Positions 20,390-30,374 of a DNA stretch of 56,874 bases are shown here, in pieces (the stretch's first letter is position 1; every line of letters starts with the position of its first letter). The position numbers were made by a program, and so were the translations under genes. Source of the stretch: Planctomycetia bacterium (GTDB taxonomy: Bacteria > Planctomycetota > Planctomycetia > Pirellulales > S012-138). The stretch is from NCBI GenBank assembly GCA_016177915.1, contig JACOUI010000377.1, positions 1 to 56,874 on the forward strand, in the 5' to 3' direction. Under the pieces are notes generated by a model. The model worked only from the letters and a program-made list of their open reading frames with translations, had not been told where the DNA came from and searched no databases.

Positions 20390-20938
20390 TCAGATTTTCG
20401 GAATCTCGCGGCGGATTTGCTCCAGCCGCTCGCGCGTGCCGTGGACGTCGCACCAGCGGTAGACGTAGTCCCAGTCGATCGCGTCGCCCTGGACGGCGAT
20501 GACGTCGCGCACGTCCTCCAAGTCCTTTTTCCGCGCCCAACGCAGCTTGGTGATGATCACGTCTTCGGGGGTCGGCAAGTAAACGTCTCGCCCCGCAACT
20601 TGAATGCGCCGGCGCCGGGCGAAGCGCTCTTGGTCGTGTGCGTCGCCGCCGAGTTTGAAGAGTTCAATCTTGAACGCAGTCTGGGCAACGCGAACGACTG
20701 CTCGCGTCGTGCCCGTGGCCGTCTCAAAGGTGAGCTGCGGGTCCAAGCGAAACTCAGGCCCGAGCCGCGCAACAAGCCACGACAGCGAACCTGATTCAAG
20801 GTCAATGAAGAAGTCGGCGTCCTCCGTCGCGCGGGGGATCCCGTAGTAATTGCTGGACAGAGAGCCGACGACGAGATAGGGCAGATTCTCGGCATTGAGC
20901 GCATCGACGACGGCCAGGGTGTACTCGTCCAGTTTCAA
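20390..20938 (-). CDS. Minimal nucleotidyltransferase-fold protein
   Basis: TTG start at 20938. VVGSLSSNYYGIPRATEDADFFI is a GS...DxD polymerase-beta-type NTase signature. 4-nt TTGA overlap with the upstream small ORF. Confidence 0.7.
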   Translation of the reverse strand: MKLDEYTLAVVDALNAENLPYLVVGSLSSNYYGIPRATEDADFFIDLESGSLSWLVARLGPEFRLDPQLTFETATGTTRAVVRVAQTAFKIELFKLGGDAHDQERFARRRRIQVAGRDVYLPTPEDVIITKLRWARKKDLEDVRDVIAVQGDAIDWDYVYRWCDVHGTRERLEQIRREIPKI

Positions 20939-21165
20939 TTCTGCGTCTCCATCCGCTCTCGGAGCGCAAGCCTCTCCGCCAGAATCCGACGCACGTCTTC
21001 TTCCGACGCACCGGGATTCTGGTTGCGAATTCCCTCAATCGTCATCCAACAGGCGAATTCGAAGAGCCGCGGACCGGCAAGAAATTTTTCCTCCGCAGGC
21101 GTGCTTCTGGCGCGCACGACCTTCTCGCGGTAAATGTCGTCCAGCAGCTCTTTCGTCGGCTCCAT
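20935..21165 (-). CDS. Small helical partner protein of the nucleotidyltransferase
   Basis: ATG 21165 (MEPTKELLDDIYREKVVRARSTPAEEKF...RILAERLALRERMETQN). Stop overlaps the NTase start. Confidence 0.55.
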   Translation of the reverse strand: MEPTKELLDDIYREKVVRARSTPAEEKFLAGPRLFEFACWMTIEGIRNQNPGASEEDVRRILAERLALRERMETQN

Positions 21166-21245
21166 CGCTAGCCCGTCCCGTGCATGTCCAGTGTCGTACG
21201 TCGGCCGCAACGAAAGCGTATTGTAACGCGTGCGATGCCGTCGCC

Positions 21246-22806: not shown

Positions 22807-22834
22807 TTGACCGCGTTCCGCGAATTGCTATACT
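22807..22834 (+). promoter_or_regulatory. Sigma-70-like promoter candidate (TTGACC-16-TATACT) for the 22.9-30.4 kb cluster
   Basis: 5/6 matches in both hexamers. 65 nt upstream of the first cluster gene. Confidence 0.4.
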
Positions 22835-22898: not shown

Positions 22899-23771
22899 TT
22901 GCCGACAACCCGTCGGCCGTTGACACGGTTCCGGTTGTGTCACGAGAGCGCGCTTTGTGCTGCGCCGGCTTCGTTCCTTCCGCTGGCGGCCGCGACCACG
23001 AACTATCTGTGCGCGACGCCGATTTCGCTGGCGGTCTTTCGCCTTTGCGAGCTACGGCGGCTTTCCGATGTGGAGCTGCGCGCGCCGATCGTCGACCTGG
23101 GCTGTGGGGCGGGACAGTTCGTGCGGCTGGCGATGGCGGGACGGGTGGAGATCGGCGTTGACATTTCGCCGCGCCAAGCCGCCGGCGCGCGTCGTAGCGG
23201 GCGGTACGAGCGCGTGGTCGAGGCCGACGCGGCGGAGTTGCCGCTGGCCGATGAGTCTGTGGGCACGGTGCTGGCGGTCTCTTCGCTTGAGCACATGCGG
23301 AGGCCGGAGAAGGTGCTCGCCGAAGCGGGGCGCGTGCTTCAGCCGGGCGGAGTTTTCGCGGCCACGATCGTGCTGCCGGAACTGCGGTCGCATTTGTACT
23401 ATTCGGAGTTGACGCGGCGAATGGGGATCGCGCCATTGGGAAGGCTCTACTGCCGGCTGCACGATTGGGCGTTTGCACACCGGACGCTCCTTCCACAAGG
23501 GCGCTGGGAGCAGTTGGCGGAAGACGCTGGGCTGGAAATCGTGACGAGCCGGCGCTTCTTCTCGCCGGCGATCACGCGATCGTTCGACTTTTGGCTGCCG
23601 CCGGCGGTGCCGTACCGGCTGCTGGCCGCCGCCGGAATGCCGCTGGTCGTGCCGCTGCCGTGGCGGCGACGAATCGTGGAAGGGATGCTCGCGCGCGAAG
23701 AGCGATCGCGCGGAAACGTTGAGGACGGCACACTGTTGTTCCTCCTGGCACGGAAACGGGGGACGCCATGA
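22899..23771 (+). CDS. Class I SAM-dependent methyltransferase (first gene of the cluster)
   Basis: IVDLGCGAGQF (motif I), LPLADESVGTVLAVSSLEHM, LQPGGVFAATIV. TTG start at 22899 (start uncertain). Stop overlaps the next ATG (ATGA). Confidence 0.8.
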   Translation: MPTTRRPLTRFRLCHESALCAAPASFLPLAAATTNYLCATPISLAVFRLCELRRLSDVELRAPIVDLGCGAGQFVRLAMAGRVEIGVDISPRQAAGARRSGRYERVVEADAAELPLADESVGTVLAVSSLEHMRRPEKVLAEAGRVLQPGGVFAATIVLPELRSHLYYSELTRRMGIAPLGRLYCRLHDWAFAHRTLLPQGRWEQLAEDAGLEIVTSRRFFSPAITRSFDFWLPPAVPYRLLAAAGMPLVVPLPWRRRIVEGMLAREERSRGNVEDGTLLFLLARKRGTP

Positions 23772-24694
23772 ACCGCCGCGGCTTCACGCTGGTCGAGTTG
23801 CTGACGGTGCTCTCGATCATCGGGATGCTGCTGTCGCTGCTGATTCCGGCGGTGCAGGCTGCACGCGAGGCGGGGCGGCAGGTGGTGTGCAAGAACAACC
23901 TTCACCAATTGGCGCTGGCCTGCGACCTGCACCACACGACGCTTTCCGTCTATCCGCCCGGCCAGTTCACGGGCCCGAATGGCAAGGGCCCGTATGGCAA
24001 CGGGCCGAATTCGACGGCCTGGAGCTTCCTTGCGCGGGTGCTGCCGTACCTGGAGCGCAAGGACATTTACGAGCACGGCGACATTCCCAATAAGACGCTG
24101 CTGGAGAGCGGCGTGATGCACCTGACGCTTGGGGTGCTGCACTGCCCCAGCAATGGCCCGGCCGTGGCGCTGACCGATCGCGGGAACCTGATGACGTTCC
24201 CGGTCGGGCCGACGAACTACAAGGGCGTGAGCGGCTCAAACTGGGGCATGGACACGTCGTTTGGCGCCGTCCCGATCCCCATGAACACGCAGTGGCCTAA
24301 TACCGGGGCCAACGGCTCGCAGGACGGCCTGGACGACGGCGACGGCATGTTCTTCCGCAGCGACGAGCGGGTCCGGCGGACGGCGGCGCACGTGCGGGAC
24401 GGCCTGTCCAACACGTTCATGCTCGGCGAGGACCTGCCGGAAGAAAACGTGTACTGCTCGTGGCCCTATTCCAACAATGCCTACGGCACCTGCGCAATCC
24501 CGCCGAACTTTTCGAGCGCCGGCGGCCCGGGCGATTACCAGAACCGGTTTGGCTTCCGCAGCAACCACCCGCACGGGCTGCACTTTGCTTTTGCGGGCGG
24601 GGCGGTGCGGCAGGTGAAGGCGTCGATCGACTTGAAGTTGTACCGAAGTTTGGCGACGATTGCCGGAAAAGAGGGGTTGAGCTTGCCCGATTAG
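23768..24694 (+). CDS. DUF1559-family protein with prepilin-type N-terminal methylation segment
   Basis: MNRRGFTLVELLTVLSIIGMLLSLLIPAVQAAREAGR. The C-terminal HPHGLHFAFAGGAV is a variant of the H-X9-DG tail (DG replaced by GG). Confidence 0.9.
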   Translation: MNRRGFTLVELLTVLSIIGMLLSLLIPAVQAAREAGRQVVCKNNLHQLALACDLHHTTLSVYPPGQFTGPNGKGPYGNGPNSTAWSFLARVLPYLERKDIYEHGDIPNKTLLESGVMHLTLGVLHCPSNGPAVALTDRGNLMTFPVGPTNYKGVSGSNWGMDTSFGAVPIPMNTQWPNTGANGSQDGLDDGDGMFFRSDERVRRTAAHVRDGLSNTFMLGEDLPEENVYCSWPYSNNAYGTCAIPPNFSSAGGPGDYQNRFGFRSNHPHGLHFAFAGGAVRQVKASIDLKLYRSLATIAGKEGLSLPD

Positions 24695-24725
24695 AGTTCG
24701 CGCTTTTGGCGCCGGAGGCGCCGCA

Positions 24726-25661
24726 ATGAATTTCCGGGTTGTGCGAACAGTGCTGGGTCTCGTGCTGATCGCGGCGGCCGCCGCGAAGGGGCACGCTTTG
24801 GCCACCGACCCGGCTTGGGCGGACAGTCTGTCAAGCAATCCGTGGGTTGCACCGGGCGTCATTGAAGCGGAGTTTGCGTTCGGGGTCTGGCTGCTTTCGA
24901 ACCGCGCTCCGCGGATTACATGGTGCCTCATGGCGGCGTGTTTTCTAGTGCTCGCTGCTGTCGCCCTGACGGAGGCGACACGGGGGGCGGCGTCCTGCCG
25001 GTGCTTTGGCAAGGTAACGATTAGCCCGTGGTGGACGTTTGCGTTCGACGCGGCGGCGCTGGTTGCAATTGGGCTGTTTCGGCCGAGTCCCCCCGCGAGG
25101 GATGGCGAAACGAGCTGGTCGATGTCTCCACGGTTTGGCGGCGTGCTCTTTGGGGCGTGGCTCTTGGCCGCGGTGTCCGGCGGAACGGCGATTGCGGCGC
25201 TGCGCCCCGCGCCCGTGCCTGTCGAATCGGCCCGGGCTGACGACGCTCGAGCGGTGGTGCTGCGGCCCGAGCAGTGGATTGGAAAGCGGCTGCCTTTGCT
25301 GGCCCATGTTCCCAATGCCGCGGTGTTAGGGCGAGCCGACTGGGTGGTGGTGCTACACCGGCACGACTGTCCGCATTGTCAGGCACTGTCCGCACGGATT
25401 AGAGAAGTCGTTTCCGGCGACGCGCGCCGGGGATGCTTCCGTCGCGTGGCGCGGATCGAATTGCCGCCGCACCCGGCGCCCTCGGAGAGCGAGGAGCCAG
25501 GGCCGTGGCTTTCGGTGAGGCTGAGCGCGCGAAGGACGTGGCTAGGAACCACGCCCGCCATTCTGCTGATCCGCGACGCGGTGGTCCTGCGCGTCGTGGA
25601 CGACGTGCCGTCGATCGGCGACTTCGCACTGACTCCTCCTGCTGGGGAGGCGCTGCCATGA
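24726..25661 (+). CDS. MauE/DoxX-like membrane protein fused to a thioredoxin-fold domain (CPHC)
   Basis: 4-5 predicted TM helices with the MauE-type SCRCFG loop. The C-terminal domain has VVVLHRHDCPHCQAL, a thioredoxin CxxC that matches the DsbA-type CPHC. Confidence 0.75.
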   Translation: MNFRVVRTVLGLVLIAAAAAKGHALATDPAWADSLSSNPWVAPGVIEAEFAFGVWLLSNRAPRITWCLMAACFLVLAAVALTEATRGAASCRCFGKVTISPWWTFAFDAAALVAIGLFRPSPPARDGETSWSMSPRFGGVLFGAWLLAAVSGGTAIAALRPAPVPVESARADDARAVVLRPEQWIGKRLPLLAHVPNAAVLGRADWVVVLHRHDCPHCQALSARIREVVSGDARRGCFRRVARIELPPHPAPSESEEPGPWLSVRLSARRTWLGTTPAILLIRDAVVLRVVDDVPSIGDFALTPPAGEALP

Positions 25662-26224
25662 GTCGCCGTACTTCAGCCATCGGCGCCGGGTTGCTTCTTG
25701 TCGGCGTCGCGGCGTTTGACCTGATCTTCGTGTTCGCGTTTCCGGCGGCGCATCCATCCAAGGAGCGCGACGAGCCCCCGTCTGCACCGATCTCCGGCGG
25801 GAAGACGGTGCCCGGGCGGACGCAGGACTGCGGGGCGAAGAGCCTGTACGTCATTTGCAAGGCGCGCGGCGTGGCCACGTCGATGGAGGAGCTGCGGCGG
25901 TTGACGAGAACGACCGAAGAGGGGACGTCGATGCTCGACCTGAAGCACGCGGCGGGTGCGCTGGGCTTCACGGCCGAGCCCTATGAATTGTCGTTCGAGT
26001 CGCTGCGCCGGCACCTGGCGATCCCGGGCAACTACGCGATCCTGCACGCAAACACCAAGCACTTCTTTCCCGCCGTGGGGAGCAGCGGAAACAAGGTTCG
26101 CGTGTTGGATGCGGCGATTGGCATCGAGGAAGTGGATGAACGCATGTTGCGTTCTTCCCGGTATCGCTGGGAGGGCAAAGCGCTCCTCCTGACTCCGGTC
26201 GAAGAGCAAGCGTCCTCGCATTGA
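25658..26224 (+). CDS. Membrane-anchored stand-alone peptidase C39-like cysteine protease
   Basis: ATGA overlap with the previous gene. N-terminal MSRRTS plus TM AIGAGLLLVGVAAFDLIFVFAF. C39 motifs are QDCGAKSLYVICKARGV (Gln/Cys), AILHANTKHFFPAVG (His) and VRVLDAAIG (Asp). No ABC transporter domain. Confidence 0.75.
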   Translation: MSRRTSAIGAGLLLVGVAAFDLIFVFAFPAAHPSKERDEPPSAPISGGKTVPGRTQDCGAKSLYVICKARGVATSMEELRRLTRTTEEGTSMLDLKHAAGALGFTAEPYELSFESLRRHLAIPGNYAILHANTKHFFPAVGSSGNKVRVLDAAIGIEEVDERMLRSSRYRWEGKALLLTPVEEQASSH

Positions 26225-26234
26225 GGCGGCAGCC

Positions 26235-27278
26235 ATGATCAGTCGTTACAAATTAGCGGTCCTGACAACGTGTGTCGCGCTCTGCGGCTGCGCGGGCAGT
26301 GCCGACGTCGCGACGCAAGGCGGGCCGCGTAACGAAGCCCCGCCCGTCCAATTGGAATTCGAGCCGAAGACAATCGACCTAGGCGATTTGCCGATGGGCG
26401 CAGAGCGCGCGTTTAGCGCCAAGGTCGTCAATCGCACGGGCGCGACCGTGACGGTCCGCGACATGCTTCCGAATTGCCGATGCGCCAAAGTGGAACTGCC
26501 CGAGCGCGCTATCGCCCCCGGCCAAAGCGTTAGCCTGAAGGGGTCTTTTGTCGCGGGCGACGCGGCAGGCCTGGTACGTACGTACGTGGTCCTCGATGTG
26601 GAGGGAGGCCAGTACCCGCTGGAACTTCGCGCGAACGTCATCCGGCAGGTTTCGTGGTCGCCCGCAGTCGTCGTTCTGGCCCCGGACGTGGTAGCGGACG
26701 CGGCGGGCGAAGGCGCGTTTACGGTTACGAACGGGTCATCCGAGGCTGTATCGCTTTCTGAAGCGTCCAGCGAGCGCGTGGGCGCGTCACTCGTTTTGCC
26801 GCCCGATCCAATTGCGCCGGGTGCCTCCGCCCCGATCAGGGTTCGTTGCGGCCCCGGCGCCGTCCAGCCGCGCGATTTGACGGTCAGGGTACTCACGTCG
26901 CATCGCTTTGAGCAGAGATTGGACCTGCCCGTCCAGGTTCGCCCAAAGAGTACCGTCGAAGTGAAACCAGCCGCCATTCATTTCGGAGTCATCTCCAAAG
27001 ACGATCTGCTGAACCGTGAGCACATCGAGGTCGTCATGGACGGAGACGTGTTGGATTCGTACAAGTTTGAAGGCGTCGACACGCCACCCTACCTAAGGCT
27101 TAGCGGCTTTACGTCCATTGCCGCGCAAAGTCGGCGGATCGTCGACCTTGTCGTGCTCGACTCGTTTCGCGGCATCGACTTGGGGAGCACGCTCGCGTTC
27201 CGGTTCTCGCGGCGCGCGGGCGGGGCCGATTTGGTGGTCGAGCTTCCGATAAGCGGGTTCCTTGCCACATCCGAATAG
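26235..27278 (+). CDS. DUF1573 (Ig-like/ASH-type) domain protein, signal/lipoprotein-like N-terminus
   Basis: IDLGDLPMGAERAFSAKVVNRTGATVTVRDMLPNCRCAKVEL fits the DUF1573 pattern (G.v..g......f.v.N.G...l.i..v...C.C). N-terminal LAVLTTCVALCGCAGS. Confidence 0.75.
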   Translation: MISRYKLAVLTTCVALCGCAGSADVATQGGPRNEAPPVQLEFEPKTIDLGDLPMGAERAFSAKVVNRTGATVTVRDMLPNCRCAKVELPERAIAPGQSVSLKGSFVAGDAAGLVRTYVVLDVEGGQYPLELRANVIRQVSWSPAVVVLAPDVVADAAGEGAFTVTNGSSEAVSLSEASSERVGASLVLPPDPIAPGASAPIRVRCGPGAVQPRDLTVRVLTSHRFEQRLDLPVQVRPKSTVEVKPAAIHFGVISKDDLLNREHIEVVMDGDVLDSYKFEGVDTPPYLRLSGFTSIAAQSRRIVDLVVLDSFRGIDLGSTLAFRFSRRAGGADLVVELPISGFLATSE

Positions 27279-27325: not shown

Positions 27326-27808
27326 ATGCGGCGCGTTACGATGCTCGTGTTGTTGATTCTCGTGGCTTGCGTCCTTAGCGCGTCCGCACCGTCTGCTCTC
27401 CGCGAGACTCCTGGCAGGCCCTTGGCCGCCGCGGAGGCCGCCGCGCTTCGCGGATCGCAGACTGGCGCCCACTGGTGCAATCAGTTCCCCGCCTGCGACT
27501 TTCCGCCTACCGGTTCGTGCCCTGGAGGCACAGTCCTCTGTGAGGGCAAGCAGCCCAATCAAAAGTGCGCTTCCCCGCTCGACCTCATCTATTGGGACCG
27601 TCCAGAGGAGTGCAATCCCGAGTCGGGACATCAGTATTGCTCAGTGTACCAATATAGGCAGGTGCTCTGTCGGACATTCATGGACTGTCTCTGCGACTAC
27701 GTCGACGAGGAGCTGACGTGCAGCAAGCAAGCCCCGGCCAACACTACCTGTAAGAACATCCTGCTCGACCCGTGTACGTGCTCCTTTACGCCGTGTCCAG
27801 GCAGTTGA
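27326..27808 (+). CDS. Cys-rich secreted/lipoprotein-like small protein (160 aa, 16 Cys)
   Basis: AGGAG lies 6 nt upstream of ATG 27326. N-terminal MRRVTMLVLLILVAC is a lipobox-like LVAC. It is followed by PLAAAEAAALRGS and a 116-aa region with 15 Cys. No homologue recognised. Confidence 0.65.
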   Translation: MRRVTMLVLLILVACVLSASAPSALRETPGRPLAAAEAAALRGSQTGAHWCNQFPACDFPPTGSCPGGTVLCEGKQPNQKCASPLDLIYWDRPEECNPESGHQYCSVYQYRQVLCRTFMDCLCDYVDEELTCSKQAPANTTCKNILLDPCTCSFTPCPGS

Positions 27809-27909
27809 TCGCGCGCTGACAGTCCGCCTTGCAATCACTCGGAGACATCTGCACGTCAGTCAGCAGGCAGGCACGCCCGTCACCGGAGCCACATTCTCAT
27901 CTCTTACTC

Positions 27910-29025
27910 ATGGAGCGGCGACAGTTCATTATGCGCAACAGAGTTCTTCTGGTCACTGCGTGCATGTTGTTGGCCATGACGAGCCGCATCGCCACTGGCG
28001 ACGACGGCTTGGCCATGGCGGTCGAAGCATGGAAGGCGTCTTCAACAGCCGTGACCTCCGGCGAGGGTACTGGGACGTTCCTGTACGAAAAGCGCAACAC
28101 GCCAACCGGACCGTGGAAAACCATCACCGACGCGCGCGTGTCTGTCTTCTTCGACAAGGAGAAATACCACATTCGGATGGAGTGCTCTAAGGAATGGCTT
28201 GGAGCCCGACGACGCATCATCATTCACGACGGATCTGCGATCTTCAGCAGCCGGTTCGTGACGGGAGCTCAACCCGTTGATGGCCAGGGTGAAGTGTTCC
28301 TCAACCGGAACGTCGGGGGAATGGTACGGCCCGAAGCCGCAGGCGTGCCGTGGGACGTGAGTAGACTTCCCTACAGTCTCGGCAATCTTCCCTTGATGGT
28401 GAAGAAGGTCGGCGCGGAGAACATCGCGGTGACGCGAACAGCGGAGGGCGACTACATTCTATCGCACGCGGTAGTCAATAGCCCCAACGTACGGGTGGAG
28501 CGCCACTGCCTGCGTCAGTACGGGTACAACATCGGTATCAAACGGTTACTAACCGTGGGGCAGGACACGCCGACTCAGGAGTTCAACGCCACATGGAAGA
28601 AAGCGGGGCACGTCTGGTACATTGCATCCATTGAAGAGAATTCGACCGTAAAAGACACCGAGTCTGAAACCGTCTACCACCGGTGGAAGTTGAGCTACGA
28701 CAACTTCACTCCCAACGCCGCGGTTCCCGCGAGCCGTTTCAGCTTCGCCGCGCTGGAGCTTCCCGGGGGAGCGCGCATCCTCGATCACAGGCCCGCGACG
28801 GCGGCACCCATTCGGTACGTTCCGGTGAAGGATGCGGAGATGGAAGCGAAAATGGACAGCCTGGTCGAGCAGCTCAACAGCCTGCCTTCCACGCGGCCCA
28901 AGCGCGGGGAGGTCGAAGGCGCCGAAGGCAGCATCCGCTGGTGGGTGTTCGGGGCGGTCAATGCTCTTGTCGCCATTACGGTCATCGTCTTGCTCGTGCG
29001 CATGCGCCGTCGCAAGACCGCCTGA
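27910..29025 (+). CDS. Secreted protein with C-terminal TM anchor and Arg-rich tail (hypothetical)
   Basis: ATG 27910 or 27931. Signal-like MRNRVLLVTACMLLAMTSRIATG. C-terminus WWVFGAVNALVAITVIVLLVRMRRRKTA. The middle may be a LolA-like beta fold (weak impression only). Confidence 0.65.
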   Translation: MERRQFIMRNRVLLVTACMLLAMTSRIATGDDGLAMAVEAWKASSTAVTSGEGTGTFLYEKRNTPTGPWKTITDARVSVFFDKEKYHIRMECSKEWLGARRRIIIHDGSAIFSSRFVTGAQPVDGQGEVFLNRNVGGMVRPEAAGVPWDVSRLPYSLGNLPLMVKKVGAENIAVTRTAEGDYILSHAVVNSPNVRVERHCLRQYGYNIGIKRLLTVGQDTPTQEFNATWKKAGHVWYIASIEENSTVKDTESETVYHRWKLSYDNFTPNAAVPASRFSFAALELPGGARILDHRPATAAPIRYVPVKDAEMEAKMDSLVEQLNSLPSTRPKRGEVEGAEGSIRWWVFGAVNALVAITVIVLLVRMRRRKTA

Positions 29026-29129: not shown

Positions 29130-30374
29130 ATGAACGGCCGCGCACGCTCTACTTGGCAGTGGGTTGTTTGGGCCGCCGGTCACTACCTGACAAGCTGCGT
29201 GGTCTTTGTCGCCGTCTGGATCGGAGTCTTCGTCGCTCCGTCAGTGCGCGCCCCGCGGAGCTACCTGGGCGGCTTTGTCCAGATCGACGGGATATCGCAC
29301 GAGGAACTCGTCACGCGCGGCTACGCCGACGCCCCGAGAACTGCGGCGCGCTTTCCCGCGTACATTGTGCTGTCTTGGGCCGTCGAGCGGCTCACCGGCG
29401 CGAGCGCGGCCCTGGCACTCGTCCTGACGGCGAACGCCTGCTTTTTGGCGGCGCTGATCGTGTTGGCCAAGTACCTTGCCGAGCGCCGGAGAGTTGAAGG
29501 CGGCGTCGCTGGGCCTCCGCAGCGCGTCGACCTGACGCTCTTGGCGCTGGGCCTGTGGCCATTCTCGCTCTTTTTTCGAATGGCCTACACCGAGTCGCTG
29601 TTCCTGCTCTGTGCGATCGTGTCGATGTACGCCATCGAGCGCCGCTGGCCCGCGTGGGCGATCGCGCTCGTCGTCGGCCTGACGACTGCCACTCGGCCCG
29701 TTGGCGTCGCTCTCGTCGCGGTGTTTGCGATGCACCTCTGGCAGGAATCCCGCCGTAATGCGCTGAGATCACCGGCCCGATCGTTGCGCTCTTTCGTCCC
29801 GCGCGCGGCGCTTTGGCTGCCGCTCTCCTGCTGGGGACTCATCGCCTACATGGCCTATCTGCACCTCCAGTTTGGCGACGCCTTCGCCTTCGCCCACGCC
29901 CAGGACATGTGGGTGCGCCGCGCCACTTACTGGCCCGAAAAAATCGTGCCGCTCGTGGCGCTGGAGCCGCTGTGGTCCCCGTACGTCCACGGCGCCACGA
30001 CCTATTGGCGCAGTTACGACTCGGGCAATAACCCACTCTTGAGCTTCGGCTTCGTGAACCCCATCGTCTTCGTTCTCACCGTGGCGGCGGTCGTGACGGG
30101 CGCGATCAAGAAGTGGCTGAACGGCCGCGAGCTTTTGCTGTGCGGTCTGCTCCTGGGCATCCCGTACGTGACGATGGCCTACGACAACATCATGCTGGGC
30201 CAAGCGCGCTTCGCGTCGGTGGTTTTTCCCGCGTACATCGTCCTGGGGCGCTTGCTTCGGCGCCTGCCACCGTGGGCGATCGCCGTCTTTTTCGTCCTCT
30301 GCGCCCTGCTCCTTGGCTTTTACTCCGCCCTGTTTGCCGGGGGGTACGGTCAGACGTGCAGGGTGCTTTACTGA
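29130..30374 (+). CDS. Polytopic membrane protein, GT-C / PIG-V-like mannosyltransferase family
   Basis: ATG 29130 within ORF 28683..30374. Many TM helices. FFRMAYTESLFLLCAIVSMY and the overall layout resemble PIG-V/GT-C glycosyltransferases. Confidence 0.65.
   Translation: MNGRARSTWQWVVWAAGHYLTSCVVFVAVWIGVFVAPSVRAPRSYLGGFVQIDGISHEELVTRGYADAPRTAARFPAYIVLSWAVERLTGASAALALVLTANACFLAALIVLAKYLAERRRVEGGVAGPPQRVDLTLLALGLWPFSLFFRMAYTESLFLLCAIVSMYAIERRWPAWAIALVVGLTTATRPVGVALVAVFAMHLWQESRRNALRSPARSLRSFVPRAALWLPLSCWGLIAYMAYLHLQFGDAFAFAHAQDMWVRRATYWPEKIVPLVALEPLWSPYVHGATTYWRSYDSGNNPLLSFGFVNPIVFVLTVAAVVTGAIKKWLNGRELLLCGLLLGIPYVTMAYDNIMLGQARFASVVFPAYIVLGRLLRRLPPWAIAVFFVLCALLLGFYSALFAGGYGQTCRVLY

Follow-up and report, generated by a model that had tools for sequence, protein, structure and literature searches.

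Beside DsbB and VKOR, MauE was put forward and tested in 2026 as a third enzyme with which bacteria generate disulfides (bioRxiv 10.64898/2026.03.05.709764, March 2026). In that preprint, an Escherichia coli dsbB knockout regains motility and PhoA activity when given the MauE protein of Caldithrix abyssi or that of Desulfatibacillum aliphaticivorans, and loss of either cysteine of the CXC motif abolishes the rescue. The motif is typically followed by Phe-Gly, and a lysine on the first transmembrane helix (TM1) and a glutamate on the second (TM2), both highly conserved near the docked quinone, are the proposed ligands of the quinone head. The client in the mau cluster is the MADH small subunit, which has six disulfides, and 8.2% of the InterPro MauE entries are thioredoxin-superfamily fusions; Planctomycetes are not mentioned (bioRxiv 10.64898/2026.03.05.709764). 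Here we describe such a fusion in a 56,874-nt stretch of a Planctomycetia bacterium (GCA_016177915.1, contig JACOUI010000377.1), which we call the window. A gene at 24726-25661 encodes a 311-residue protein in which a MauE membrane core is joined to a thioredoxin-like (Trx) domain; it lies on the plus strand, as do all features below unless stated otherwise. We put the probability at roughly 0.7 that this MauE-Trx protein is a single-chain, quinone-linked, MauE-type disulfide-generating enzyme, most likely the dedicated oxidative-folding module of its operon.

Fusions of VKOR to a Trx domain place the logic of DsbB and DsbA in one chain, and the window protein has a similar layout, with a four-helix core predicted to reduce quinone, an additional transmembrane helix and a Trx-like domain predicted to be periplasmic. 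The two cores are unrelated in sequence, however, with CXC in the window protein against CXXC plus a loop cysteine pair in VKOR, and Pfam returns no VKOR match for the CXC-bearing core; judged by sequence, the resemblance is one of architecture and not of homology. A second parallel is the MauE/MauD pair, in which a membrane MauE and a periplasmic, CxxC-bearing Trx-like partner mature one multi-disulfide client. The window differs from it in carrying both functions in one chain and in its client, which would be an unrelated cysteine-rich protein; no mauA, mauB or other mau genes are present among the eight operon proteins scanned. Both parallels had been drawn in an initial annotation made from the sequence alone, and they are apt; a membrane redox module and a Trx-fold domain predicted to be periplasmic are here combined in one chain.

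Functionally closest are the sublancin and glycocin operons (sunA-sunT-bdbA-sunS-bdbB), which encode the DsbB-like BdbB, the Trx-like BdbA, an exporter with a C39 domain (SunT) and a precursor that is disulfide-bonded (PMC6405829). There, as we propose for the window, a dedicated DsbB-like oxidase and a Trx-like protein adjoin a C39 peptidase and a disulfide-containing secreted precursor. The window has a MauE core instead of a DsbB homologue, fused to its Trx partner, and its C39 peptidase is stand-alone, anchored and predicted to be periplasmic, whereas in those operons C39 is a cytoplasmic domain of an ABC exporter. Its precursor has a Sec-type N-terminus before the leader and 15 cysteines in about 115 residues, and the window contains a DUF1573 protein and no glycosyltransferase. 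Genes for mauE also occur in candidate clusters for peptides made on the ribosome and modified after translation (RiPPs) of Streptomyces (PMC7794033). The statement in the initial annotation that a dedicated redox module beside a cysteine-rich substrate candidate is not a described system was therefore too strong: the replacement of DsbB by MauE and MauE-Trx fusions (bioRxiv 10.64898/2026.03.05.709764), the mauE RiPP candidates (PMC7794033) and the glycocin operons (PMC6405829) were already on record.

The assignment to MauE rests on several concordant features. The gene has a Shine-Dalgarno sequence (GGAGG, 24714-24718) with a 7-nt spacer to its ATG, and the product matches PF07291 (MauE) over residues 5-117 with 37.8 bits against a gathering score of 27 (E 2.9e-9), spanning positions 7-124 of the 128 in the profile. 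No other Pfam or NCBIfam family scores above its cut-off on this protein; the BT_3928 family (NF045576) reaches 23.1 bits against a cut-off of 250, in a match confined to the MauE-like region. The four-helix membrane core (residues 5-118; 24738-25079) carries the CXC motif Cys91-Arg-Cys93 (24996-25004) in the TM3-TM4 loop, followed by Phe-Gly to give SCRCFG. Across an alignment of 45 sequences, C91, C93, F94 and G95 are invariant, and the only invariant cysteines of the whole protein are C91, C93, C215 and C218, far above chance. The loop motif reads CGCFG in 43 of these sequences and CRCFG in two, the window protein being one of the two, so that the middle residue, usually glycine in MauE, is arginine here. 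Lys21 in TM1 and Glu49 in TM2 are invariant in both family alignments. With the experimentally tested MauE proteins the window protein shares the Pfam family, the four-helix core, CXC-Phe-Gly in the TM3-TM4 loop, the Lys/Glu pair and, at the level of the family, thioredoxin fusion; the tested proteins are stand-alone, four-helix and from other phyla, whereas in the window clade the core is followed by a fifth helix and a Trx-like domain that is divergent. Every sequence feature that we assessed places the protein in the MauE family, with an activity that is predicted. Because the clade has all the published sequence features of MauE, a single chain working in the manner of DsbB/DsbA or MauE/MauD is well supported.

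The fusion of the two halves is genuine. A word-indexed search returned five further full-length homologues, each with both halves, in which S-C-x-C-F-G, PWWTF, H-D-C-P-x-C, E-x-P-P and the proline at P277 are invariant. The homologue set grew to 54 proteins in a profile search, and when 1.84 billion cluster representatives (clusters at 50% identity) were searched exhaustively with a profile, there were 5,413 matches at E<=1e-3 and 1,361 at E<=1e-30; among the best 150 of these matches, almost all run end to end over the profile. A scan of one genome per species located 70 loci, nearly all in Planctomycetota metagenome-assembled genomes (MAGs) and most of them matching both domains, from Pirellulales, Planctomycetia, Phycisphaerae, Sedimentisphaerales and Tepidisphaeraceae. 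Several MAGs have more than one copy, such as Bythopirellula JTS-AC311 (L017, with two copies, L019, L020 and L030) and Planctomycetota Y23 (L002, L003, with three copies, and L042). The database survey suggested in the initial annotation has thus found the fusion in more than 1,300 clusters and 70 loci, and the relatives carry the same fusion and not two genes.

This distribution bears directly on the possibility that a frameshift or misassembly joined adjacent mauE-like and mauD-like genes, or that an antisense open reading frame (ORF) is the real gene. The window is rich in GC, where long spurious ORFs are common, and the antisense ORF in question (24236-25315, opposite strand, 359 aa) clusters across 40 loci. 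The same one-frame architecture, however, is found in over 1,300 independent clusters and in the 70 genome loci, the hydrophobic fifth helix and the charged loop join both domains family-wide, and the Pfam match and the invariant motifs lie in the plus frame. An artefact is therefore excluded for all practical purposes. The antisense ORF was rejected as a true gene and is a shadow of the conserved plus-strand gene.

An AlphaFold2 (AF2) model computed from the 45-sequence alignment (mean predicted local distance difference test score, pLDDT, 82.5) has five long helices (residues 3-27, 41-58, 62-85, 101-117 and 135-159), with the SCRCFG loop between the third and the fourth. The PF07291 match, the AF2 helices and the invariant motif bear out the four MauE helices and the SCRCFG loop described in the initial annotation. 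The fifth transmembrane helix (residues 135-159; 25128-25202) is marked by the model, a hydropathy peak and the lysine- and arginine-rich loop before it, and both the helix and the positively charged loop (RPSPPARDGE...) are present as had been noted. In the window protein this TM4-TM5 loop has three Lys/Arg against two Asp/Glu. The family mean over 45 members is 4.1 Lys plus Arg in the TM4-TM5 loop and about 0.7 in loop 1 as well as in loop 3, both of which are presumed periplasmic. Five helices together with a Lys/Arg-rich TM4-TM5 loop therefore place the CXC loop and the C-terminal domain on the periplasmic side by prediction, in line with the initial annotation, which had put the CRC loop and the CPHC domain in the periplasm; a cytoplasmic location of the cysteines is not predicted. 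A TOPCONS prediction likewise puts the CXC of MauE in the periplasm (bioRxiv 10.64898/2026.03.05.709764).

The C-terminal half poses a different problem, in that no Pfam or NCBIfam thioredoxin-like family (Pfam Redoxin, AhpC-TSA and Thioredoxin included) matches it at E<=0.1. In the AF2 model it nevertheless folds with a pLDDT of about 90 into a TlpA/ResA-like thioredoxin fold (about residues 174-294; 25245-25607), with a strand at 205-212, the CPHC site, a helix at 216-235 and strands at 240-246, 271-274, 278-283 and 286-291. The CxxC site, Cys215-Pro-His-Cys218 (25368-25379), opens helix 216-235; the segment WVVVLHRHDCPHCQAL, which includes CPHC, is present and in the model forms a strand and then the start of a helix, the active-site arrangement of thioredoxin. 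T276-P277 stands directly before strand 278-283, at the cis-proline position, and P277 is nearly invariant within an x-T-P-V/A motif. All of the top 50 Foldseek matches in the PDB are thioredoxin-superfamily folds; the best are TlpA/ResA/CcmG-like proteins, Campylobacter jejuni FetE, Streptococcus gordonii SdbA and Mycobacterium tuberculosis DsbE, with PilB-N also among the closest. The scores are modest (E 1e-3 to 3e-2, probability about 1.0, target TM-score about 0.5). A profile of the domain built from the clade matches the a-domains of PDI and the Trx domain of APS reductase (E 6e-5 to 1e-3). The fold matches and the profile matches together make the domain a divergent member of the thioredoxin superfamily; the initial annotation had read it as thioredoxin-like and had proposed structure prediction as a check. 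Since Pfam misses the Trx domain of this clade, fusions of the window type may lie outside the 8.2% count.

The active site is less like that of DsbA than it first appears. The initial annotation had linked CPHC to DsbA, and this link did not hold up. C215 and C218 are invariant and P216 is present in 38 of the 45 sequences, and the residue that follows (x in the family consensus HRHDCPxC) varies, being A, V, K or D in most members and E or H in others. CPHC itself occurs in two of the 45, namely the window protein and its closest relative. The modelled domain spans about 120-130 residues and is without the helical insertion of DsbA, no DsbA structure appears among the top 50 Foldseek matches in the PDB, and the closest folds are of the TlpA/ResA/CcmG/FetE/SdbA type. 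A DsbA-like reading of CPHC was accordingly rejected, on the grounds that the histidine is not conserved and the insertion is missing; the domain is thioredoxin superfamily, neither DsbA nor VKOR. With TlpA, ResA, CcmG, SdbA and FetE it shares a compact Trx fold, a short N-terminal beta element before it and a membrane tether. It differs from them in having CPxC where they have CxPC, and in being anchored by a whole MauE enzyme. One relative (P0045, 475 aa) carries MauE, the cryptic Trx-like domain and a second, canonical Trx domain of the TlpA/Redoxin type (residues 343-462), and thus has two tandem periplasmic thiol-redox domains.

The neighbors of the gene point to a dedicated role. The MauE-Trx stop codon and the start codon of the next gene overlap (ATGA, C39 start at 25658), and the operon genes are tightly packed on one strand. 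This next gene (25658-26224) encodes a stand-alone C39, or double-glycine, peptidase of 188 residues with an N-terminal membrane anchor (Peptidase_C39 PF03412, E 4.6e-17). It aligns to the peptidase domains of PCAT1 and ComA, with Cys58 (QDCGAKSL) at the catalytic position; by motif inspection only, His135 and Asp151 are candidates for the rest of the triad. An N-terminal Arg-Arg precedes the hydrophobic anchor, so by the positive-inside rule the peptidase domain is predicted to face the periplasm. A DUF1573 Ig-like protein follows (26235-27278, 347 aa; Pfam DUF1573, E 2.6e-13), which has an N-terminus like that of a lipoprotein and contains a CRC motif (PNCRCAKV), and then a secreted protein of 160 residues (27326-27808) that is the candidate substrate and the sole cysteine-rich ORF in the window by the criteria used. 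The initial annotation had given this neighbor 15 cysteines, a count that holds for the roughly 115 residues after the signal-peptide region and not for the whole protein, which has 16. Two further proteins complete what we call the cassette: one of about 360-398 residues with a signal peptide and a C-terminal anchor (27829-29025; kept in synteny in L071-L074) and a polytopic membrane protein of about 414 residues (29130-30374; orthologues in L071 and L073). Both have an uncertain start codon, and neither has a Pfam match. The polytopic protein was also considered as a PMT_2/GT-C glycosyltransferase, a reading left unsupported by the missing Pfam match and an hhalign probability of 0.2%.

The cassette can be followed into four related loci, L071 and a further three (L072, L073 and L074) that were reached by exact-protein look-ups; scans of metagenome contigs with the C39 protein or its alignment gave no match. 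The six-gene order, with near-equal lengths, is kept in L071 and L073, where in L073 a MauE-Trx of 311 residues is followed by C39 (183; 51% identical), DUF1573 (347) and proteins of 164, 362 and 407 residues. Between the window and L071, C39 proteins of the same length are 87% identical, MauE-Trx about 83-84%, DUF1573 66% and the cysteine-rich protein 46%. Cysteine-rich orthologues, found at 3014-3493 of L071, 2663-3157 of L073, 8779-9276 of L072 and 4239-4703 of L074, make up with the window protein a set of five that are 32-45% identical, yet have 13 invariant cysteines. This gradient of identity, lowest in the cysteine-rich protein while its cysteines are kept, suggests a fast-evolving client with constrained cysteines.

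The same protein bears a second conserved element (R31..L33..E37..L41-R-G43-S44; 27416-27457). Directly after the N-terminal hydrophobic segment stands the motif R-x-L-x-D-A-E-L-A-A-L-R-G-x, in which R31, L33, L41 and G43 are invariant. Numbered from a putative cleavage site after Ser44, the five orthologues show L(-12), E(-8), L/A(-7), L(-4) and an invariant G(-2); at -1 they have S, S, G, R and R, the L073 protein thus ending in a true GG. This spacing is presumably that of the double-glycine-type leader of C39 substrates, in which positions -4, -7 and -12 are hydrophobic, -8 is Glu and -2/-1 are Gly-Gly, Gly-Ala or Gly-Ser. A Sec-like hydrophobic segment before such a leader is atypical. 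The signal and the leader are conserved together with a stand-alone C39 peptidase predicted to face the periplasm, which would be an unusual location for leader processing. These comparative data strengthen the case, made in the initial annotation, that the cysteine-rich neighbor may be a substrate of MauE-Trx.

Our proposal for the pathway is as follows. The fifth helix would return the chain to the periplasm, where the compact Trx-fold domain would present Cys215 and Cys218. From the thiols of an exported client protein, electrons would pass to the tethered Trx domain with its CPHC disulfide, from there to the CXC disulfide of the MauE core, and on to the membrane quinone and the respiratory chain. 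The co-transcribed protein with its 13 invariant cysteines would be exported by its N-terminal hydrophobic signal and oxidized by MauE-Trx; the DUF1573 lipoprotein, which bears a CxC, might act here as a helper or as a co-substrate. The double-glycine-type leader may then be cut off by the C39 peptidase, which is membrane-anchored and predicted to face the periplasm. The present analysis establishes the identities of the domains, the fold, the conserved residues, the fusion and the gene order; in this scheme we infer the direction of electron flow from the complementation data on other MauE proteins (bioRxiv 10.64898/2026.03.05.709764) and the identity of the client from the conservation of the operon.

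Beyond the lineage of the window the surroundings of MauE-Trx genes are more varied. With the neighbors in the window as tblastn queries, the 70 loci returned only DUF1559 and DUF1573, and C39 once; all-versus-all clustering of the loci produced mostly glycosyltransferases, secretins and shadow ORFs. The wider neighbors were resolved with hidden Markov models (HMMs) and a Pfam scan of pooled neighbors. With the DUF1573 HMM, 30 of the 70 loci show this domain, usually with C-x-C, at no more than 4 kb from the MauE gene, and in 22 of them it lies within 500 bp or in the same polypeptide. Among the two nearest neighbors on each side, DUF1573 is the commonest Pfam family (18 of 224 ORFs), followed by PMT_2 glycosyltransferases, secretin and DUF1559. 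Linked or fused examples are L001, L002, L010, L014, L018, L022-L032, L037, L038, L055, L059, L065 and L070, together with P0040, P0053 and P0054. By Pfam, MauE-[Trx]-DUF1573 fusions occur in P0040, L010 and L055, and MauE-DUF1573 fusions in P0053 and L059. A DUF1573 selenoprotein in which the motif reads U-G-C appears in the lists of two reviews (PMC9312934, PMC13188914), which argues that the CxC of DUF1573 is redox-active.

In 9-11 further loci the strand of the MauE gene carries unrelated ORFs that encode a signal peptide and 10-24 cysteines, and such ORFs are found 10 times on the same strand and once on the opposite one (Fisher p=0.03 against small ORFs). Common ancestry of the cysteine-rich ORFs was considered and set aside, there being no detectable similarity outside the window's own lineage. 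C39 was likewise ruled out as a general partner of MauE-Trx, L005 being alone among the 70 loci in having it; that locus holds the peptidase plus a cysteine-rich ORF with an I-x-x-I-K-G-G motif.

Several observations weigh against our reading. Sequence does not reveal which way the electrons flow, reductases are among the nearest structural relatives of the Trx domain (ResA, CcmG and TlpA), and the preprint cites earlier work in which MauE was suggested to be a possible reductase (bioRxiv 10.64898/2026.03.05.709764). Two of the related loci, L072 and L074, keep C39, DUF1573 and the proteins of about 160 and 370 residues and have no recognizable MauE-Trx adjacent to them. Position -1 of the leader, with S, G or R, does not make a strict GG, GA or GS site and is atypical in two orthologues. 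In the DUF1573 protein of L071 (1918-2967, 66% identical to that of the window) the first cysteine of the CxC is replaced by arginine (PNRRCAKV against PNCRCAKV), so neither the CxC nor a redox activity of DUF1573 would be essential in the window's lineage. Finally, most of the 70 loci have no cysteine-rich ORF within reach, and C39 lies near MauE-Trx only in the window's lineage and in L005.

The first of these observations would fit a reductive or isomerase pathway, like those from CcdA or DsbD to TlpA, ResA or CcmG, in which MauE-Trx would hold periplasmic cysteines in the reduced state or rearrange incorrect disulfides, with the CxC of DUF1573 or the many-cysteine protein as candidate clients. 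Several of the closest folds (ResA, CcmG, TlpA-like proteins and PilB-N) are reductases, reductase activity had been suggested earlier, and a client with so many cysteines needs isomerization as well as oxidation. MauE, however, lacks a cytoplasm-facing cysteine pair that could take up electrons from cytoplasmic thioredoxin, all four invariant cysteines being predicted periplasmic, and two MauE proteins replace the oxidase DsbB (bioRxiv 10.64898/2026.03.05.709764). The other top folds (SdbA, FetE and M. tuberculosis DsbE) are described as oxidases, and CPxC has proline at the first variable position, like DsbA. The active site of ResA and TlpA is C-x-P-C. We regard such a pathway as quite improbable, and oxidation by MauE-Trx as the better account.

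The scarcity of cysteine-rich neighbors elsewhere raises the alternative of a housekeeping enzyme, a general disulfide former that is the planctomycete equivalent of DsbA plus DsbB and stands beside a cysteine-rich gene incidentally. The family is indeed very widespread in Planctomycetota, most loci are without a nearby cysteine-rich ORF, the neighbors are mixed (DUF1573, PMT_2 glycosyltransferases, secretins, DUF1559), and MauE has been argued to be a generalist (bioRxiv 10.64898/2026.03.05.709764). It would be harder for a housekeeping enzyme to account for several paralogues per genome, each in its own operon, for the translational coupling to the C39 gene, for a cassette kept across about 50% sequence divergence, and for the enrichment of secreted cysteine-rich ORFs on the same strand. 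We consider this alternative unlikely. A dedicated role for MauE-Trx is preferred because of the multi-copy MAGs, the overlap of the MauE-Trx and C39 codons, the conserved six-gene order, the conservation of cysteines and leader, and the same-strand cysteine-rich ORFs.

Upstream of the MauE-Trx gene, the operon probably begins with a SAM-dependent methyltransferase (22899-23771; Pfam Methyltransf_11), which overlaps by 4 bp a gene for a DUF1559 protein with prepilin-type N-terminal methylation (23768-24694; Pfam SBP_bac_10 and N_methyl). The latter is probably part of the same operon and has the same position in L071. A promoter-like site matches the sequence at 22807-22834; terminator-like sites are no commoner in the window than in shuffled sequence. 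On the opposite strand, a short way upstream of the operon, two overlapping ORFs (20390-20938, 182 aa, and 20935-21210, 91 aa) resemble a two-gene module that is possibly toxin-antitoxin-like.

Two arrangements recur around MauE-Trx genes elsewhere. Large glycosyltransferases of the PMT_2/GT-C type, often with a GT2 enzyme, stand beside them in L003, L006, L007, L016, L020, L023-L026, L031, L035, L042, L048, L069 and L072, and also in P0003, P0004 and P0005, a hint that glycosylation in the periplasm and disulfide formation may be connected. In L023-L025, L029, L031, L037 and L038 (Sedimentisphaerales/Pirellulales) the order is DUF1573, MauE-Trx, a low-complexity protein of about 320 residues and a GspD-like secretin of 1,100 residues. 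This order suggests a link to a type II or pilus-like secretion apparatus.

What is new here is a Trx domain in this MauE clade that goes undetected by Pfam, a commonest neighbor, sometimes fused, that is a DUF1573 protein with its own CxC, and a conserved cassette whose cysteine-rich protein combines 13 invariant cysteines with a double-glycine-type leader after a signal sequence. Because standard domain models miss the thioredoxin partner, MauE-Trx fusions are probably more numerous than database surveys indicate. For DUF1573, a widespread domain with a CxC/UxC motif, its repeated linkage and fusion to MauE provides a concrete and testable hypothesis of function. The cassette, for its part, could serve as a compact system in which to study how particular clients are oxidatively folded and how leaders are processed outside the cytoplasm, and as a tool for the production of disulfide-rich proteins.

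It is possible, and we say so tentatively and with more doubt than confidence, that Planctomycetota have a modular, MauE-based system for periplasmic thiol redox chemistry. MauE would be tethered to the cryptic Trx domain, to a DUF1573 domain whose CxC is redox-active and reads Sec-Gly-Cys in some relatives, or to the two together, and dedicated copies would mature hypervariable, many-cysteine secreted proteins whose double-glycine-type leaders a stand-alone, membrane-anchored C39 peptidase removes in the periplasm. If this were true, a function could be assigned to DUF1573 for the first time, that of a disulfide carrier or isomerase of a new class, and there would be a Sec-dependent, periplasmic counterpart to the leader processing of bacteriocins. 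In summary, a very large clade in Planctomycetota (more than 1,300 clusters at 50% identity) appears to use MauE in single-chain form, which extends a newly recognized pathway and does not overturn current understanding.

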